Under the pieces are notes generated by a model. That model was not told the DNA's origin, did not search any database, and saw only the letters and a program-made list of their open reading frames with translations. 64,000 nt of DNA from Eledone cirrhosa. Its lineage: Eukaryota. The stretch is taken from assembly GCA_964016885.1 (NCBI GenBank), contig OZ024740.1, positions 392,708,001 to 392,772,000 on the forward strand, read 5' to 3'. Of this stretch, positions 5,696 through 62,375 are shown one piece after another (within the stretch, counting starts at the first letter, position 1; the number at the start of each line of letters is the position of its first letter). Both the position numbers and the translations under genes were made by a program.

Positions 5696-7300
5696 ATCAG
5701 GAAAGAAGGTTTACATGGTTTGCTATACAAAAAAGTTTTTAATCACATAGCTTACATTTGTTTCACTGAACTGGTATGTCTAGAGATCGCTATCCGCTTA
5801 ATTTTGCGTTACTCTATCGCCAATACAGAATTATAACCAGTCAGATCTTCGGAACATGCGAGAATGAGGAAAATACACAGGCAAGAAAAGAAAAGAAAAT
5901 ACGTCTACTATATGGAGTAGTTATGGCATTCAATTAGAACAATAACAACAATTACAACAATGCTATCAATAAACTATTTAAGGAGACCCTGACATTACTT
6001 AGGTGGGGGGTATATAATGTATCTAATGTTACGGCGTGAAAACCAGCTGTCATAAGGCAAAAAGTATCGTAGTGTGTATCAATTTTAAATTATAAAGATA
6101 AGCTAGTTTTTACATTCTTTCTCTTCATCTTCAACAGTATACATGAGTGGGACCACTGTCAAAGCTCAATAGTTGTAGAGTTAATACAGAGGTTAACGAA
6201 TTAATATACGCATATATCTACGCACACACACACATACACATACACACACACACACACACACATATATATATATAAATATATATACACATATATACACATG
6301 CATGTGTACATAATAAGTTAGAAAGATCTATCTTCTGCAGACATAGAATAGCCACTAAATTCATAAGATTCAAATCTCCGTGAATCGAACCAACATAACA
6401 TAGCTTTAAATTAGGATACCTACTACCCACAGAAATATATTCATTAAGTATACTATTTCCTTCACAAGTCTATACCACACAATTGTCTGTTAGTACCTCA
6501 TCTACCAACAATCTTACTCCTTCTCAGCTGCTGCAATCATTTGATCCTAGATCCTAGTTTTTCTCATTTCACTACTACAATGTTACTTTACCTTCTTTTT
6601 GCCATAATTACAATTAGCACGCTTTTCTCTTTGCATGTATGTATATTTTTGTACGAGTGTATATTGATGTGTATGTATGTGTCTATGTACACATGCATGT
6701 GTATATATGTGTATATATATTTATATATATATATATGTGTGTGTGTGTGTATGTGTATGTGTGTGTGTGTGTGCGTAGATATATGCGTATATTAATTCGT
6801 TAACCTCTGTATTAACTCTACAACTATTGAGCTTTGACAGTGGTCCCACTCATGTATACTGTTGAAGATGAAGAGAAAGACTGTAAAAACTAGCTTATCT
6901 TTATAATTTAAAATTGATACACACTACGATACTTTTTGCCTTATGACAGCTGGTTTTCACGCCGTAACATTAGATACATTATATACCCCCCACCTAAGTA
7001 ATGTCAGGGTCTCCTTAAATAGTTTATTGATAGCATTGTTGTAATTGTTGTTATTGTTCTAATTGAATGCCATAACTACTCCATATAGTAGCCGTATTTT
7101 CTTTTCTTTTCTTGCCTGTGTATTTTCCTCATTCTCGCATGTTCCGAAGATCTGACTGGTTATAATTCTGTATTGGCGATAGAGTAACGCAAAATTAAGC
7201 GGATAGCGATCTCTAGACATACCAGTTCAGTGAAACAAATGTAAGCTATGTGATTAAAACATTTTTTGTATAGCAAACCATGTAAACCTTCTTTCCTGAT
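5696..7300. repeat. Long inverted repeat (about 617 bp arms at 5696-6312 and 6684-7300) carrying hammerhead motifs; PLE pLTR-like foldback
   Basis: Arms are near-identical reverse complements (coordinate sum 12996). The right end abuts (TA)n. Confidence 0.92.
7138..7250 (+). ncRNA. Type I hammerhead ribozyme motif, CCGAAGA core variant (mirror copy 5746-5858, minus)
   Basis: gtt-CCGAAGA-t ctgactggt...accagttcag t-GAAAC aaat GTA-agc. Confidence 0.6.
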
Positions 7301-7666
7301 ATATATATATATATATATATATATATATATATATATATATATATATATATATATATTGTTTAGAAAATGTAAGAGAAACACAAACATAAGGACAATTCCC
7401 GCTCTTCGGCTGTCTGTTGTGGATCGCTGATGTTTCGACGCATTAAAGACAGTACATCTCACTGCAGTGCGTTAATAACTACGAGATATAGTTATTAGGG
7501 AAGGAAACAACAAAAAAAGATACACGATCGTGAAGAGAACGACAGAAAAAGAAAAAAACATACCGATAGAGAGGGGGAAACACGAGACAGTAGTACATGA
7601 TATATATATATATATATATATATATATATATATATATATATATATATATATATATATATATATATA

Positions 7667-8468
7667 TAATAAAGTATATATATCCCTACACGCACAAAGC
7701 GCCCAGGGAAACATGTATTGTCCAACCATATGCCAATGTGGTTCAATAGCAGGTTAATAAATTAACGAGCCAGAACATATATAATCAAGGTTTAGCAAAT
7801 AAGAAAAAGTTTCAAAATAAATTTAAAAAAATGAACTTTACTCACTTTGGTTACCTTTACTGAATCGGTTTCGAGTCTCAAAAATAAACGGACAGTTCAT
7901 ACGGCATCCGTTGCAAAGATAAACTCTCGTCAGAAGGATCTTTTCACTCGGAGAATATAAAATTCCCGAGTTCAAATTTCGAACTGGCACTATTCAAAAT
8001 TGTTCCCGAGATGAGAATGAATGATGTGGGAGCAATTCTTTCAAGAGCCGTGTGTAAAGATAGAAGCAAAGGCAGGGAAGTCAACTTACTACCACTATAA
8101 CTAGCAGCAGTCATAACGACCAAATTTTTTTCTCGATCAAGAGGAGAATAATAATAAAGTATATATATCTCTACACGCACAAAGCGCTCAGGGAAACATG
8201 TATTGTCCAACCATATGCCAATGTGGTTCAATGGCAGGTTAATAAATTAACGAGCCGGAACATATATAATCAAGGTTTAGCAAATAAGAAAAAGTTTCAA
8301 AATAAAGATCCTTCTGACGAGAGTTCATCTTTGCAACGGATGCCGTATGGACTGTCCGTTTATTTTTGAGACTCGAAACCGATTCGGTAAAGGTAACCAA
8401 AGTGAGTAAAGTTAATTTTTAAAAATTTATTTTGAAACGTTTTCTTATTTGCTAAACCTTGATTATAT
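7667..8468. mobile_element. HHR-containing non-coding unit (about 485 nt period) in partial tandem plus an inverted copy; PLE-derived or retrozyme-like
   Basis: Direct repeat 7667-7819 / 8152-8305 and inverted repeat 7780-7942 / 8305-8468. (TA)n on both sides. Confidence 0.8.
8310..8393 (+). ncRNA. Canonical type I hammerhead ribozyme (mirror copy 7854-7937, minus)
   Basis: cctt-CTGACGA-gagt...actc-GAAA-ccg att cgg-TA-aagg. All three stems and both core boxes are present. Confidence 0.85.
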
Positions 8469-9224
8469 ATATATATATATATATATATATATATATATAT
8501 ATATATATAGAGAGAGAGAGAGAGAGAGGGGGGAAGGGAGAGAGATAGGGAGGGGGTAGATTAGATAGATAGAAAGATAAATAAAAATATAGATAGATAG
8601 ATATAAATATCATGATTAAGAGTTTTGACTGTTTGATCTGTGAATATACTCGCATAAGGTAAAGAGAGAGATATATAGATGTCTATATAGATCGCCATGG
8701 AGAAGCGACAATGGGTAACTGTGGTGTTTTCTTGACATTTTCAATAGAATAAATTATTAAATTCAATAAATTTATATAGATTAAGTAATCTATCTATGAA
8801 TATCAATATTTCTTCTTGATTGACCCTCTTCAGCACTGAACTAGTCTGCAGAAAATTTTAGAGTTGAAATGTTCGTAAGAAAATCCTTTATTTCTGTTGC
8901 GTGGACTACAGGCTTGTTTGAATTTCATGCTGGATAATTGGACAGCAAGGCAGAAACAGTTAAAGAAATCCTGCGAAGGCGTTAATTCATAACTAAATAG
9001 ATTAGATATAGATTGAGAGACAAACAGAAAGACAGTTAGAGAGATAAGCATAACAAATATAGGTTCATTGATAGACTACATAATATTGTAATGGAGAGTT
9101 TATCTCTTCCCCGATTTTTTTTTCAGAACTATCTCAACAATACATAATTTTTTAATGAAATTTTGCAGATGCCTTTTCGAATCTGTAAATTATGATTATG
9201 TAGAAAGAAGGTTTCTATTTTGCC

Positions 9225-60399: not shown

Positions 60400-61505
60400 T
60401 CAAATATGTATATAAATGTGTTCATATATCTCTATATATATATAAATGTGTTTATATATATATATATATATAAATGTGTTTATATATACATACATACACA
60501 CGCACACACACACACACACACACACACACACACACACACACACACACACACACACACACACACACACACACACATATATATATATATATGTATATATATA
60601 TATATATGTATATATATATATATATATATATGTATATATATATATATATATATATATATATGTATATATATATATATGTATATATATATATATATATATG
60701 TATATATGTATATATGTATATATATATATATATATATGTATATATGTATATATATATATATATATATATGTATATATATATGTATATATGTATATATATA
60801 TATATATATGTATATATATATGTATATATGTATATATATATATATATATATGTATATATACATATATATATATATATATGTATATATACATATATATATA
60901 TATATATATATATGTATATATACATATATATATATATGTATATATACATATATATATATATGTATATATACATATATATATATATACACACACATATATA
61001 TATATATATATATATATATGTATATATATATATATATATATGTATATATATATATATATATGTGTATATATATATATATATATATATATGTATATATATA
61101 TATATATATGTGTATATATATATATATATATATATGTATATATATATATATATATATGTATATATGTATATATATATATATATATATATATGTATATATG
61201 TATATATGTATATATATATATATATATGTATATATGTATATATATATATATATATATATGTATATATATATGTATATATGTATATATATATATATATATA
61301 TATATGTATATATACATATATATATATATATATATGTATATATACATATATATATATATGTATATATACATATATATATATATACACACATATATATATA
61401 TATATATATATATATACACACACACACATATATATATATATATATATATATATATATACACACACACACACACATATATATATATATATATATATATATA
61501 TATAT
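60400..61505. repeat. 1.1-kb compound (TA)n/(CA)n/(TATG) microsatellite
   Basis: Direct inspection. It is the source of the spurious YI-repeat ORFs. Confidence 0.97.
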
Positions 61506-61936
61506 CAGGGCGAAACGTACGTAGGTGCACAATTATATAAACATGTTTTAACGGTTTTAAACTCTTTGTATTCATTTCCTTTATAATCGCTCTGCTTATT
61601 TTTCTCGCCCACTAAATATTGACGCCTCTAATATTTAACCCTGTAGGCACGAGTATTGAGCACACATGCATAAACTATTGGCAACTATATGTATCGACCA
61701 TCTTTCCATTCTCTTCTCTCTCTCGATACCTAATCATTCTATATATATATATATATATATATATAAATATATATATATATATATATATATATATATATAT
61801 ATGTAGATAAATCTACCAAGAGTTTACGGTAGTGTCCAATCCGTATGAAGAACTCAATGTAATCCGGATATCATGGAAAGAAGAGATGCAATGAAAAATC
61901 ACTTTCGGTGAAAGATAAACGGAATACAGAGTCAAG

Positions 61937-62375
61937 ATAAAATATTAAAAAAATAATGAATAAAACAATGAAACAGTTCCTTATATTAAACAAAAAAAGT
62001 TCATTATTTAACGATCGTTTCTAGGATATATATGTGTTAGAATTGGCATGCATATTCAACAGATCTATGTACAAAATTATACAAAATTATACAAACTATC
62101 AAAATTAAATATACATACCAACACATATATATGCCGTCTTCAGACGGCATATATATGTGTTGGTATGTATGAAGACGGCATATATATGTGTTGGTATGTA
62201 TATTTAATTTTGATAGTTTGTATAATTTTGTATAATTTTGTACATAGATCTGTTGAATATGCATGCCAATTCTAACACATATATATCCTAGAAACGATCG
62301 TTAAATAATGAACTTTTTTTGTTTAATATAAGGAACTGTTTCATTGTTTTATTCATTATTTTTTTAATATTTTAT
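61937..62375. repeat. 440-bp palindrome that folds back at a hammerhead core
   Basis: Mirror ORFs 62037..62264 and 62048..62275. Minus strand 62143-62009 reads CTGAAGA, a long stem II, then GAAAC gatc GTT. Confidence 0.9.

Follow-up and report, generated by a model that had tools for sequence, protein, structure and literature searches.

Type I hammerhead ribozymes are known from two kinds of mobile element, the Penelope-like elements (PLEs) and the retrozymes. Those published earlier have much in common with the motifs described here, namely the type I order, a short or palindromic stem III, an extra base before stem II and the U3-A8 pair, and they too occur as many families per genome, mostly as single truncated copies and with pairs on opposite strands. 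Among PLEs the closest relatives are those of the Hydra clade, which in the relevant section of Craig et al. (2021, PMC8557442) are described as having a C-terminal endonuclease, RWK-like, DKT and CxCX5C motifs, (TA)n targets, hammerheads, an inverted 5'-truncated arm and a tail at one end, all of which recur here; one hammerhead-bearing octopus family, Hydra-1_Obim, is already listed there. Metazoan non-LTR retrozymes, as portrayed in the passages concerned of PMC7229834 and a recent preprint (bioRxiv 10.64898/2026.07.22.740005), resemble our non-coding units in being tandem units of 150-500 bp with a type I hammerhead, low GC, strong self-pairing as circles and a proposed dependence on PLEs; one of nine retrozyme dimers cleaved in the Xenopus test of that preprint. 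The mechanism of insertion is best compared with that of the anole PLE Poseidon in vitro (Anolis; Frangieh et al. 2024, PMC11167929, in the parts on insertion), where the protein cuts and extends both strands of an AT-rich target, reverse transcription starts at two internal sites that define the tail, priming occurs without homology to the target, and ribozyme mutants leave insertion unaffected.

Here we compare with these systems the hammerhead motifs of a 64-kb stretch of the Eledone cirrhosa genome (the window). Our reading, to which we give a probability of roughly 85%, is that type I hammerheads lie in the 3' ends of PLEs, mostly of the Hydra clade, and in short, non-coding tandem units which are likely to use the PLE enzyme, both being inserted in (TA)n across the octopod genome through the two-ended insertion proposed below.

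Motif census and genomic setting

A type I descriptor allowing C3-G8 or U3-A8 and U4 or C4 gave 12 strict matches in the window, against 0.17 +/- 0.41 (maximum 2) in 60 local dinucleotide shuffles. Hand curation recognised 28 type I motifs in 14 families, in keeping with the dozen or so families proposed by the initial annotation, and half-motifs at 11.05, 52.4 (two arms), 52.9, 53.5, 61.5 and 62.0/62.3 kb. Every position listed by that annotation holds a motif or half-motif; the one at 62.1 kb, given as a motif, is present as a half-motif, both arms ending inside the core and lacking the 5' strand of stem I that is present in full family copies (L004, L031). Four copies at 46 and 58 kb have GCAA in place of GAAA, stem I amounts to only ~2 bp in the motif at 55.5/57.7 kb, and a degenerate pair at 43205(-)/43253(+) and a type-SGC motif at 7394-7508(-) were absent from the earlier list. 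Rfam returned none of the window's hammerheads at gathering score, nor any among the best 150 of 220 matches at E<=1, and descriptor counts for hammerhead types II, III, CSG and GCS were at shuffle level.

Across the genome, 112 descriptor matches were found in 99 spaced 10-kb stretches (2.1 in shuffles), which corresponds to ~113 per Mb and to an estimated ~3x10^5 motifs (estimate range 2.3-4.6x10^5) in a 3-Gb genome. The window is therefore not a special cluster: it is dense when compared with chance, but its 12 matches are close to the 7.2 expected per 64 kb from the genome average (P ~0.16), and an enrichment over the genome was rejected. The diversity of the population, described as unusual, is upheld by 35-41 family clusters in 990 kb and a Chao2 estimate of 62-77.

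The host gene (119..62490, + strand) encodes an octopod class B (secretin/PTH-receptor-like) GPCR, identified by Pfam (7tm_2) and tblastn; the Pfam search covered 150 of 389 frames, and the gene was then settled by tblastn with O. vulgaris and Argonauta proteins (70-91% identity per exon), giving exons at 119-229, 2799-2969, 4726-4890, 37470-37529 and 62416-62490. All ribozyme motifs lie between these five exons, inside introns 4891-37469 and 37530-62415, and are thus intronic as claimed. A domestication of intronic ribozymes to regulate the GPCR gene might be read from two families, F13 (a dimer) and F50 (monomer-type), which are sense to the gene and have no protective antisense arm; however, the density of the window is that of the genome background, nothing suggests orthologous conservation, and the intronic copies are young, since they are 90-100% alike to dispersed family members. 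We regard such a regulatory role as most improbable.

Penelope-like elements and non-coding units

Six of the 14 window families are the 3' ends of protein-coding PLEs (five of the Hydra clade), four are non-coding tandem units of 317-527 bp, and for four neither tie could be made. The proposed link to PLEs is thus established through the reading frames of six families, and the picture of non-coding RNAs that mostly lack an ORF is only half correct because these six are 5'-truncated ends of coding elements and only four families are shown to be non-coding units. The PLE ORF, a reverse transcriptase (RT) with a C-terminal GIY-YIG-type endonuclease between pLTRs, is intact in F16 and F14 and broken or partial in F5, F38, F48b and F55. 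Assignment to the Hydra clade was made by motifs, (TA)n targets and the hammerhead; when compared with section 11 of PMC8557442, the motifs (RWR for RWK, DKT and CxCX5C) were read in the F16 and F14 frames, the linker in F5, and DKT with the linker in F38.

The F16 foldback (16272..16802) has C4 cores at 16521(-) and 16717(+), a palindromic stem III, a long end at +211 and a short end at +47, and is the 3' end of a Hydra-clade PLE that is young and intact, with a 4199-bp unit and an 819-aa ORF. This element was also seen, as presence only, in contigs of three runs, and no RNA record was listed as containing it. The F14 foldback (14531..16075; motifs 14619(-) and 15897(+)) is likewise the 3' end of a young Hydra-clade PLE, whose 5011-bp unit (L353) holds a frame of 844 codons from stop to stop, and 40 of 40 copies among the matches listed are 100% identical over 126 nt. 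F5 (5692..7304) is a foldback from the 3' end of a Hydra-clade PLE, with C4-core type I motifs at 5852(-) and 7144(+) and a long stem II; a longer copy (L354) has RT and CxCX5C/GIY-YIG-type frames, and a first look gave 1570 candidates. F38 (38378..42515, -) is a broken Hydra-clade PLE with direct pLTRs, motifs at 38477 and 42432 and coding remains at 40086-42166. F48b is represented by a motif at 48668..48804(-) with a U3-A8 core at 48772 and a long stem III, by a second complete copy at 58458-58596(-) with its core at 58564, by half-motif foldbacks after which a Hydra-clade ORF starts (52384..53500; ORF start 53102-53419), and by a related half-motif at 11045..11100(+) that keeps GAAA, stem III and the cut site without the core. 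F55 (55255..57905) consists of a 5'-truncated PLE and an inverted pLTR, with atypical motifs at 55496(-) and 57693(+), the RT at 56346-57416(-) and a CX4CxxC linker with GIY-YIG at 55761-56342(-).

The four retrozyme-like units have no PLE ORF and each bears a type I hammerhead. F8 (7666..8463) is a 485-bp unit present as a partial dimer with an inverted arm (motifs 7933(-) and 8314(+); 1733 candidates), F13 (12833..13478, +) a 317-bp tandem dimer with U3-A8 cores at 12993 and 13310 (1750 candidates), F17 (17507..18250, -) a 527-bp unit with a motif at 17753, an 8-nt palindromic stem III and a short inverted arm, and F50 (50445..50850, +) a solo 506-bp unit with a canonical core at 50530 and a 4-bp, looped stem III (2093 candidates).

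Further members of the window are F46, with a foldback at 46238..46840 carrying a U3-A8 core with GCAA (A13C) at 46385(-) and 46652(+) and a second at 57968..58424 (58153(-) and 58239(+); arms 99.8% alike), its upstream region being CA-rich; its sister family F54 (54860..54990, +), a degenerate U3-A8 motif at 54901 that has kept GAAA; and F48a (47885..48484; 977 candidates), a foldback with U3-A8 cores at 48036(-) and 48333(+), a long stem II and an 8-nt palindromic stem III. An old foldback, F43a, with degenerate motifs at 43205(-) and 43253(+) and arms 75% alike, lies beside F43b (43478(-)), a relative of F38, at 43093..43540, and the half-motif at 61.5 kb is followed by the F62 foldback (61940-62372, truncated inside the core) at 61505..62372.

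Could the short units instead be viroid-like circular RNAs that replicate from RNA to RNA, are copied to DNA by a PLE only occasionally, and keep their ribozymes for the RNA cycle? Whole units folded as circles do so far better than shuffles (sense z -3.6 to -8.8), arrays reach 20 units (L081-L082), family diversity is very high, and RNA-to-RNA steps have been raised in PMC4209133. Yet each non-coding family examined ends as PLE insertions do. The sole antisense hammerhead-like motif, in a 311-nt family (L052/L313), has three core changes and is not conserved in the sister family F13; it was rejected as an antisense ribozyme, and as the one candidate it leaves circles with ribozymes in both polarities unsupported. 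We consider a viroid-like cycle quite unlikely and favour units that borrow the PLE enzyme.

Core, stems and predicted catalysis

Most families have a type I core (C3 U4 G5 A6 N7 G8 A9, G12 A13 A14 A15, U16 H17) that is canonical or carries U3-A8 or C4, both being variants that the initial annotation allowed for; exceptions are F46, which fails at A13, and F43a, with C3-A8. A census of the 3-8 pair counted 71 C3-G8, three U3-A8, one C3-A8 and no U3-G8, and relaxing the descriptor singly at positions 4, 5, 6, 9, 12, 14 and 15 added 0-2 matches each. Covariation, tested for type I on the F38 group only, was assessed in an alignment (A1) of 46 F38 relatives collected by homology, where 93% of cells are paired and 9 of 21 pairs show double changes, in support of three helices with an open stem I; in stem II, 8 of 10 pairs do so (83 cells against 32.5 shuffled), which provides the expected compensatory changes for this group, although this shuffle control of pair counts, used in A1 and in the type-SGC alignment A2, can be beaten by kinship of the sequences without structure. 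The number of further pair types showed no excess over shuffles in either A1 or A2.

The self-complementary stem III noted initially is found in 81 of 112 matches and, among distinct short stem III contexts, in 31 of 37 against ~7.5 expected; F8, F48b and F50 have a longer hairpin in its place. Folding energies were uninformative for single motifs, which fold no better than shuffles (z +1.1 to -1.7). Predicted pairing probability of stem II is 0.00 in the F14 and F16 foldbacks and 0.92 when the motif is alone, and for F8, F48a and F50 even the isolated motif does not favour the hammerhead stem II (0.02-0.08).

Whether these motifs act during mobility can be approached from two sides. F46 has been amplified with A13C, GCAA being present in 34 of 36 and GAAA in none of the matches listed; and in four families 5' ends fall within 3 nt of the predicted cut site in 5 of 195 cases against 3.1 expected, two of the five being alignment splits. 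The upstream F17 unit in the window, which begins at the cut site, was accordingly put down to chance and rejected as a cleavage footprint. There is some evidence, then, that mobility may not need the predicted self-cleavage. Taken further, most motifs might be catalytically dead passengers, the PLE ends being spread by the protein alone and the hammerhead shape kept solely as a protein-binding or priming structure; the F46 core, the 5' ends without a pile-up and the in vitro insertion of ribozyme mutants (PMC11167929, in the part on insertion) all fit, as does a common core-less F48b sub-family (16 matches in 11 of 99 stretches). Against it, conservation of the core positions and of the 3-8 pair extends over dozens of unrelated families, NUH has been retained, and the palindromes of stem III vary in sequence and stay palindromic, a pattern that dimer catalysis would select for. 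We think dead passengers unlikely as an account of most motifs.

Insertion structure and proposed mechanism

Copies are inserted in (TA)n and form head-to-head foldbacks (19 pairs head-to-head, one tail-to-tail). Partial tandems, an inverted 5'-truncated copy and a tail at one end, as expected of PLEs, were also seen. Each family has two fixed 3' ends, with short TA patches at most of them; 2 of 10 ends checked (F50 short, F13 long) lay on no clear TA patch at the offsets applied. A long end is combined with a short one in 68 of 71 two-armed insertions, and in 51 of 52 from families queried without the tail; ends were read by eye, and the counts leave out 14 further two-armed loci whose ends match neither mode. 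The F16 ends at +47 and +211 recur as contig ends in run X5. The second F46 foldback (57968-58424), both of whose ends are long, is an exception.

Foldbacks could also arise as DNA-level inverted duplications, or as assembly errors at (TA)n repeats, apart from any insertion mechanism, and a few near-perfect palindromes (57968-58424, and 49602-49705) look the part. A copied arm would, however, give equal ends, which the 68 of 71 long-and-short insertions do not show; the arms also differ in 5' extent, and the structure has been published for PLEs (PMC8557442, in the section on these elements). This origin is already disfavoured, and we judge it very unlikely.

For the two-ended insertion that we propose instead, the RT/GIY-YIG protein would nick a (TA)n target on both strands. 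Each of the two DNA ends would prime reverse transcription at a fixed site of its own, the short or the long one, downstream of the ribozyme. The two truncated cDNAs would then be joined to give a foldback with one tail. Minimal motifs with palindromic stem III may cut as dimers in tandem transcripts and may yield circles, the copied template would be uncut at the cleavage site, and insertion probably does not require cutting. Within host pre-mRNA, the antisense arm would be made first and could pair with the sense ribozyme, which may explain the tolerance of such introns.

A type-SGC permuted hammerhead

The same kind of element also carries a hammerhead of the type-SGC (non-circularly permuted) form, which is predicted to be active. 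Its element is a ~750-bp non-coding unit, 5'-truncated at 7356..7600(-), with 953 candidates; the motif (7394-7508) has GAAA at 7436, a C4 core at 7409 and a predicted cut after 7453(-). The SGC descriptor gave five matches against 0.3 in shuffles. In common with HRIMA-1 and its variants, as presented in the relevant parts of Eckert et al. (2023, PMC10085705), the order is cleavage block, GAAA block, CUGANGA block, a 3-4 nt linker joins stem I to the stem II side, and stems I and III covary.

The blocks were found in S-G-C order with a full core. Alignment A2 shows double changes at 17 of 22 pairs, and at 9 of 11 in stems I and III, which are 100% paired in its 21 sequences, rows having been selected for pairing in these two stems. 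Stem II is built differently: a descriptor that demanded direct pairing of the G and C blocks in stem II gave no SGC matches, the only direct pair is 10.1-11.1 (19 of 21 paired), and the partner of the G-block strand lies upstream. There is also an outer helix that closes on stem III; with its GA/AG neighbours it looks kink-turn-like by eye. As to a link with Naiad elements, no Naiad-like frame was found in the short flanks of 17 loci.

Significance and comparison with known systems

With dozens of families, two autonomous elements that are young and intact, and non-coding units to match them, both the role of the hammerhead and the insertion mode of PLEs become directly testable here, using named RNAs and a single protein. 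There is a motif every ~9 kb, which Rfam largely fails to detect, and this implies that a potential self-cutting site or a long double-stranded foldback may be present in many of the large introns of octopuses, with a bearing on how giant introns are spliced. Long double-stranded intronic foldbacks may also bear on cephalopod RNA editing. If the type-SGC hammerhead is active in an animal genome, it would widen the range of a fold whose published examples are all from environmental RNA and add a new stem II design.

The fullest version of our account is held tentatively, at a little under even odds: the largest ribozyme population yet counted (~3x10^5 intact motifs, at least 60 families), with an active animal-encoded permuted hammerhead having a rebuilt four-way stem II (~1.5x10^4 copies), a dimeric PLE protein that starts at two fixed priming sites of one RNA and copies it onto each end of a cut (TA)n target, and F14 and F16 supplying the enzyme. 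No hammerhead count for an octopus genome was found in searches of the octopus and cephalopod literature, although octopus motifs may be listed in the supplementary data of the bioRxiv preprint and of Cervera 2014/2020, and the main text of the O. vulgaris repeat annotation (PMC13282606) mentions neither ribozyme nor hammerhead.

The class, hammerheads in PLEs and retrozymes, is thus known; what goes beyond the literature found is the scale, together with the rule for the ends and the permuted form. Earlier published type I hammerheads number ~2,000-9,000 per genome against an estimated 2.3-4.6x10^5 here, where, unlike in those, stem II regions reach 50-115 nt and C4 and A13C variants are family-wide. 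When set beside the Hydra-clade PLEs in the relevant section of PMC8557442, our units of 4.2 and 5.0 kb are larger than most (<3 kb), several families have 99-100% identical copies unlike those published, tails span ~25-165 nt as against 30-40 bp, and a count (68 of 71) is given for the one-tail rule. Axolotl retrozymes reach up to 120,000 copies in two families of a 28-Gb genome, whereas the 3-Gb genome here has ~25x the density and dozens of families. Unlike retrozymes as so far described in the sources above, our non-coding units, known here as DNA rather than as circles, bear the marks of PLE insertion directly (inverted arm, two fixed ends, (TA)n). Poseidon start sites are not homologous to the target in the part of PMC11167929 concerned, whereas most here lie on TA patches matching (TA)n, each site apparently being used once per insertion. 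Finally, published type-SGC hammerheads come, in those parts of PMC10085705, from metatranscriptomes rather than genomes of known organisms, whereas the one described here lies in a genomic retroelement and differs in its stem II, which has a single direct pair and is completed by an upstream strand, and in its outer helix on stem III.

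Hammerhead motifs in the introns of a receptor gene

Two frames in the window match Pfam 7tm_2, their nearest proteins being an Octopus vulgaris secretin receptor-like and an Argonauta PTH2 receptor-like protein, which marks the animal as an octopod, and tblastn places exons of this gene on the plus strand at 119-229, 2799-2969, 4726-4890, 37470-37529 and 62416-62490, with its remaining parts in neighbouring stretches. On this exon map all the hammerhead motifs of the initial annotation fall inside a 32.6-kb or a 24.9-kb intron, as had been proposed. A hand count, made by reading the sequence and placing family patterns, comes to 28 type I motifs, which belong to 14 families named here by kb position (F5, F8, F13, F14, F16, F17, F38 with F43b, F43a, F46, F48a, F48b, F50, F54 and F55). 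The type I motifs originally listed were borne out except for the 62-kb pair, which is not complete and is cut within the core; half-motifs lie at 11.05, 52.4, 52.9, 53.5, 61.5 and 62.0/62.3 kb.

The type I descriptor comprised the core, stem II (first mismatch optional), GAAA, stem III, the cleavage triplet NUH and stem I. With a strict core it found 7 window matches against 0.05 in 60 local dinucleotide shuffles, and with C4 and U3-A8 allowed 12 against 0.17, so that motif density is above that of dinucleotide-shuffled sequence. Rfam gave zero hammerhead matches in the window at the gathering score, and the folding energy of single motifs was not better than that of shuffled sequence. Stem covariation is present in 46 F38 relatives, gathered by BLAST rather than by structure, where core columns are almost invariant and both sides have changed at 8/10 stem II pairs, with 83 double-change cells compared with 32.5 after shuffling and 2-22 in slid controls.

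The window also holds other repeats. These include a near full-length L1/Tx1-type LINE at 22184-27521 (+), with an ORF1-like frame, an AP endonuclease (Exo_endo_phos) and an RT with zf-RVT split over frames; LINE 3' fragments at 21102-21704 (+) and 636-1592 (+), of which one carries C2H2 fingers and the other zf-RVT; and a roughly 190-bp SINE-like repeat present in several copies (9220-9898, 10931-11039, 19980-20175, 30104-30290, 36038-36228 and 37710-37861). An inverted pair at 32873-33632 and 34670-35440, and a fragment at 1964-2359, derive from a LINE 3' region that looks to be of the RLE-endonuclease type.

Genome-wide density and diversity

The background sample consisted of 99 10-kb stretches, taken at round coordinates of large contigs. 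Descriptor matches number 112 and occur in 46 of the 99 stretches, whereas 10 shuffles averaged 2.1; the density corresponds to 113 per Mb (bootstrap 78-153) and is alike on the four largest contigs (51 matches in 44 stretches) and the others (61 in 55). The description of the window as dense therefore stands against shuffled sequence but not against the genome, since its 12 matches do not exceed this background (P about 0.16). The sampled motifs form 35-41 clusters (Chao2 62-77), in line with the proposed diversity. Schistosoma mansoni has a comparable motif density and few families. Taking a genome size of 3.0 Gb, the total extrapolates to 2.3-4.6x10^5 motifs, a figure that counts both arms and tandem units and misses degenerate copies; earlier papers give about 2,000-9,000 minimal motifs per genome (PMC4209133), up to 120,000 copies in axolotl (PMC7229834) and, for giant squid, 235 matches by Rfam (PMC6962438).

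When a palindromic stem III was required, the 3-8 pair in the spaced stretches was C-G in 71 matches, U-A in 3, C-A in 1 and U-G in 0, and relaxing core position 4, 5, 6, 9, 12, 14 or 15 added 0-2 matches each. When only the outer stem III pair was required, stem III was palindromic in 31 of 37 distinct contexts, about 7.5 being expected.

Elements that carry the motifs

The proposed tie to Penelope-like elements (PLEs) is upheld by six families adjoining PLE coding frames. F16 copies are 95-100% identical, and many belong to tandem units of 4199 bp that contain an intact ORF of 819 aa; the F14 unit is 5011 bp with an open frame, 40/40 of the copies listed being identical over 126 nt. Both frames carry RWR, DKT and a CxCX5C linker, and because these match the clade marks in PMC8557442 we assign them to the Hydra clade; one hammerhead-bearing Hydra family from octopus already appears in the supplement of that paper. 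A Hydra-type frame adjoins the F5 motif in a longer copy, F38 motifs border a broken Hydra element of the window, F48b stands before the start of another, and the RT beside F55 has a CX4CxxC linker and a GIY-YIG domain. In tblastn searches with three proteins, taken from the window or from other loci, coding remains of Hydra and F55 type make up 22.3 kb of the 990 kb sampled (about 2%) and occur in 17/99 stretches.

F8 (485 bp), F13 (317 bp), F17 (527 bp) and F50 (506 bp) are non-coding tandem units. The suggestion that most families lack an ORF thus fits these four, and not F5, F14, F16, F38, F48b or F55; an ORF or unit link was made for 10/14 families, the others being F43a, F46, F48a and F54. 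First-look candidates per family number 115-2093, which are not copy numbers. Folded as circles, five units (F13, F17 and three relatives found at other loci) have sense z-scores of -3.6 to -8.8.

Several further elements were seen. A Hydra-clade fragment with the CxCX5C linker lies at 44282-45268 (+), and a decayed core-like motif without GAAA near 45770. The GIY-YIG end of F55 lies at 13547-13979 (+) and 17116-17211 (-), split by later insertions that include F14 and F16; elements therefore nest within each other's (TA)n flanks. Some 110 kb past the window (L081-L082, G000:C1:392882001-392902000) about 20 hammerhead units, each of 424 bp, are arrayed head to head; at some point along one arm, core position 7 changes from C to T. 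Loci L052 and L313 are arrays of F13-related hammerhead units of 310-311 bp; an opposite-strand hammerhead-like motif in these units was set aside, as it is not kept in F13.

Anatomy of the insertions

Copies are inserted in (TA)n. An antisense copy lies within 3 kb upstream (<=3 kb) in 31 of the 86 matches with enough flank, and opposite-strand pairs are head-to-head in 19/20 cases. Within a family the 3' ends fall at two fixed positions, measured from the cut site: +47/+211 in F16, +81/+197 in F8, +61/+183 in F17, +139/+164 in F13, +187/about +276 in F50 and +122/+159 in F46. Among 71 classifiable two-armed insertions, with end classes read by eye and duplicate loci merged, 68 have one end long and the other short, 1 is short+short and 2 are long+long; the count is 51/52 without F17, whose query included the tail. 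Left out were 14 two-armed loci whose ends matched neither of the two modes, from F13 (L152, L154, L155, L163, L164, L177, L179), F50 (L005, L006, L008, L015, L022) and F8 (L229, L239). Most 3' ends fall on TA patches of 3-6 nt. Each end of a cut target would prime at one fixed site, and the two truncated cDNAs would then be joined. The 5' ends are scattered (5/195 within 3 nt of the cut site, 3.1 expected) and arms continue across that site, which argues for a template that was uncut or re-ligated.

Near-perfect short palindromes at 57968-58424, 49602-49705, 60114-60179 and 18150-18250 break the long/short rule and are possibly secondary foldback duplications. A common F48b-related sub-family stops about 10-35 nt upstream of GAAA and has no CUGANGA half (window 11045-11100, 52384-52504 and 53452-53500; L020, L034, L056, L087, L117, L134, L263, L282 and L347). 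Its copies, often tiny foldbacks, reflect either a truncation hot spot or a family spreading without the core.

Possible effects on host transcripts, and core variants

In a head-to-head foldback the antisense arm would be made first from either transcription direction. In ViennaRNA folds the stem II pair probability is 0.00 in F14 and F16 foldbacks versus 0.92 alone; the F13 dimer lacks an antisense arm and keeps 0.975; in F8, F48a and F50 it is low even alone, so the foldback comparison carries no information there. Sense copies of F13 and F50 may be the likeliest to cut pre-mRNA.

F46 has U3-A8, and GCAA for GAAA in 34/36 of the best matches to the window copy that were listed (one locus twice), with GAAA in none; GCAA also occurs in 3/5 matches of the spaced stretches. 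Its sister F54 mostly retains GAAA. PMC3088659 counts A13 as core and describes C4 as slow but viable. F46, though amplified, is probably inactive.

A type-SGC motif

One motif outside the original list has the order cleavage block, GAAA block, core block (type SGC), and lies on the minus strand at 7394-7508 with a predicted cut after 7453. An SGC descriptor requiring a direct stem II found none; without that requirement it found one in the window, and a tightened version gave 5 matches across the 99 stretches, compared with 0.3 in 10 shuffles. By homology, 11 places were found. In 21 aligned sequences, out of 25 matches, pairing is complete (100%) in stems I and III, with both-side changes at 6/6 stem I and 3/5 stem III pairs; the outer helix, not used for selection, has changes at 6/6 pairs, and four forms occur at the 10.1-11.1 pair. 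The strand on the GAAA side pairs with one lying upstream. By eye one can also make out a hairpin, and a second upstream helix formed with the post-core strand; both are misaligned between sub-families and were left uncounted. The window sub-family (953 candidates) has a unit of about 750 bp with PLE-style ends at about +100 and about +150, and in the window copy the core and stems are intact and the outer helix carries two changes.

Comparison with known systems

The original observation and its PLE tie both hold. The system is of a known kind, hammerhead-bearing Hydra elements having already been recorded in octopus, and type SGC has been published from metatranscriptomes, with cleavage demonstrated (PMC10085705). 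What goes beyond the literature searched is the scale and diversity of the hammerhead population, the near-strict one-tail rule in coding and non-coding families alike, a core-mutant family that spread nonetheless, and a genomic type-SGC variant with predicted activity.
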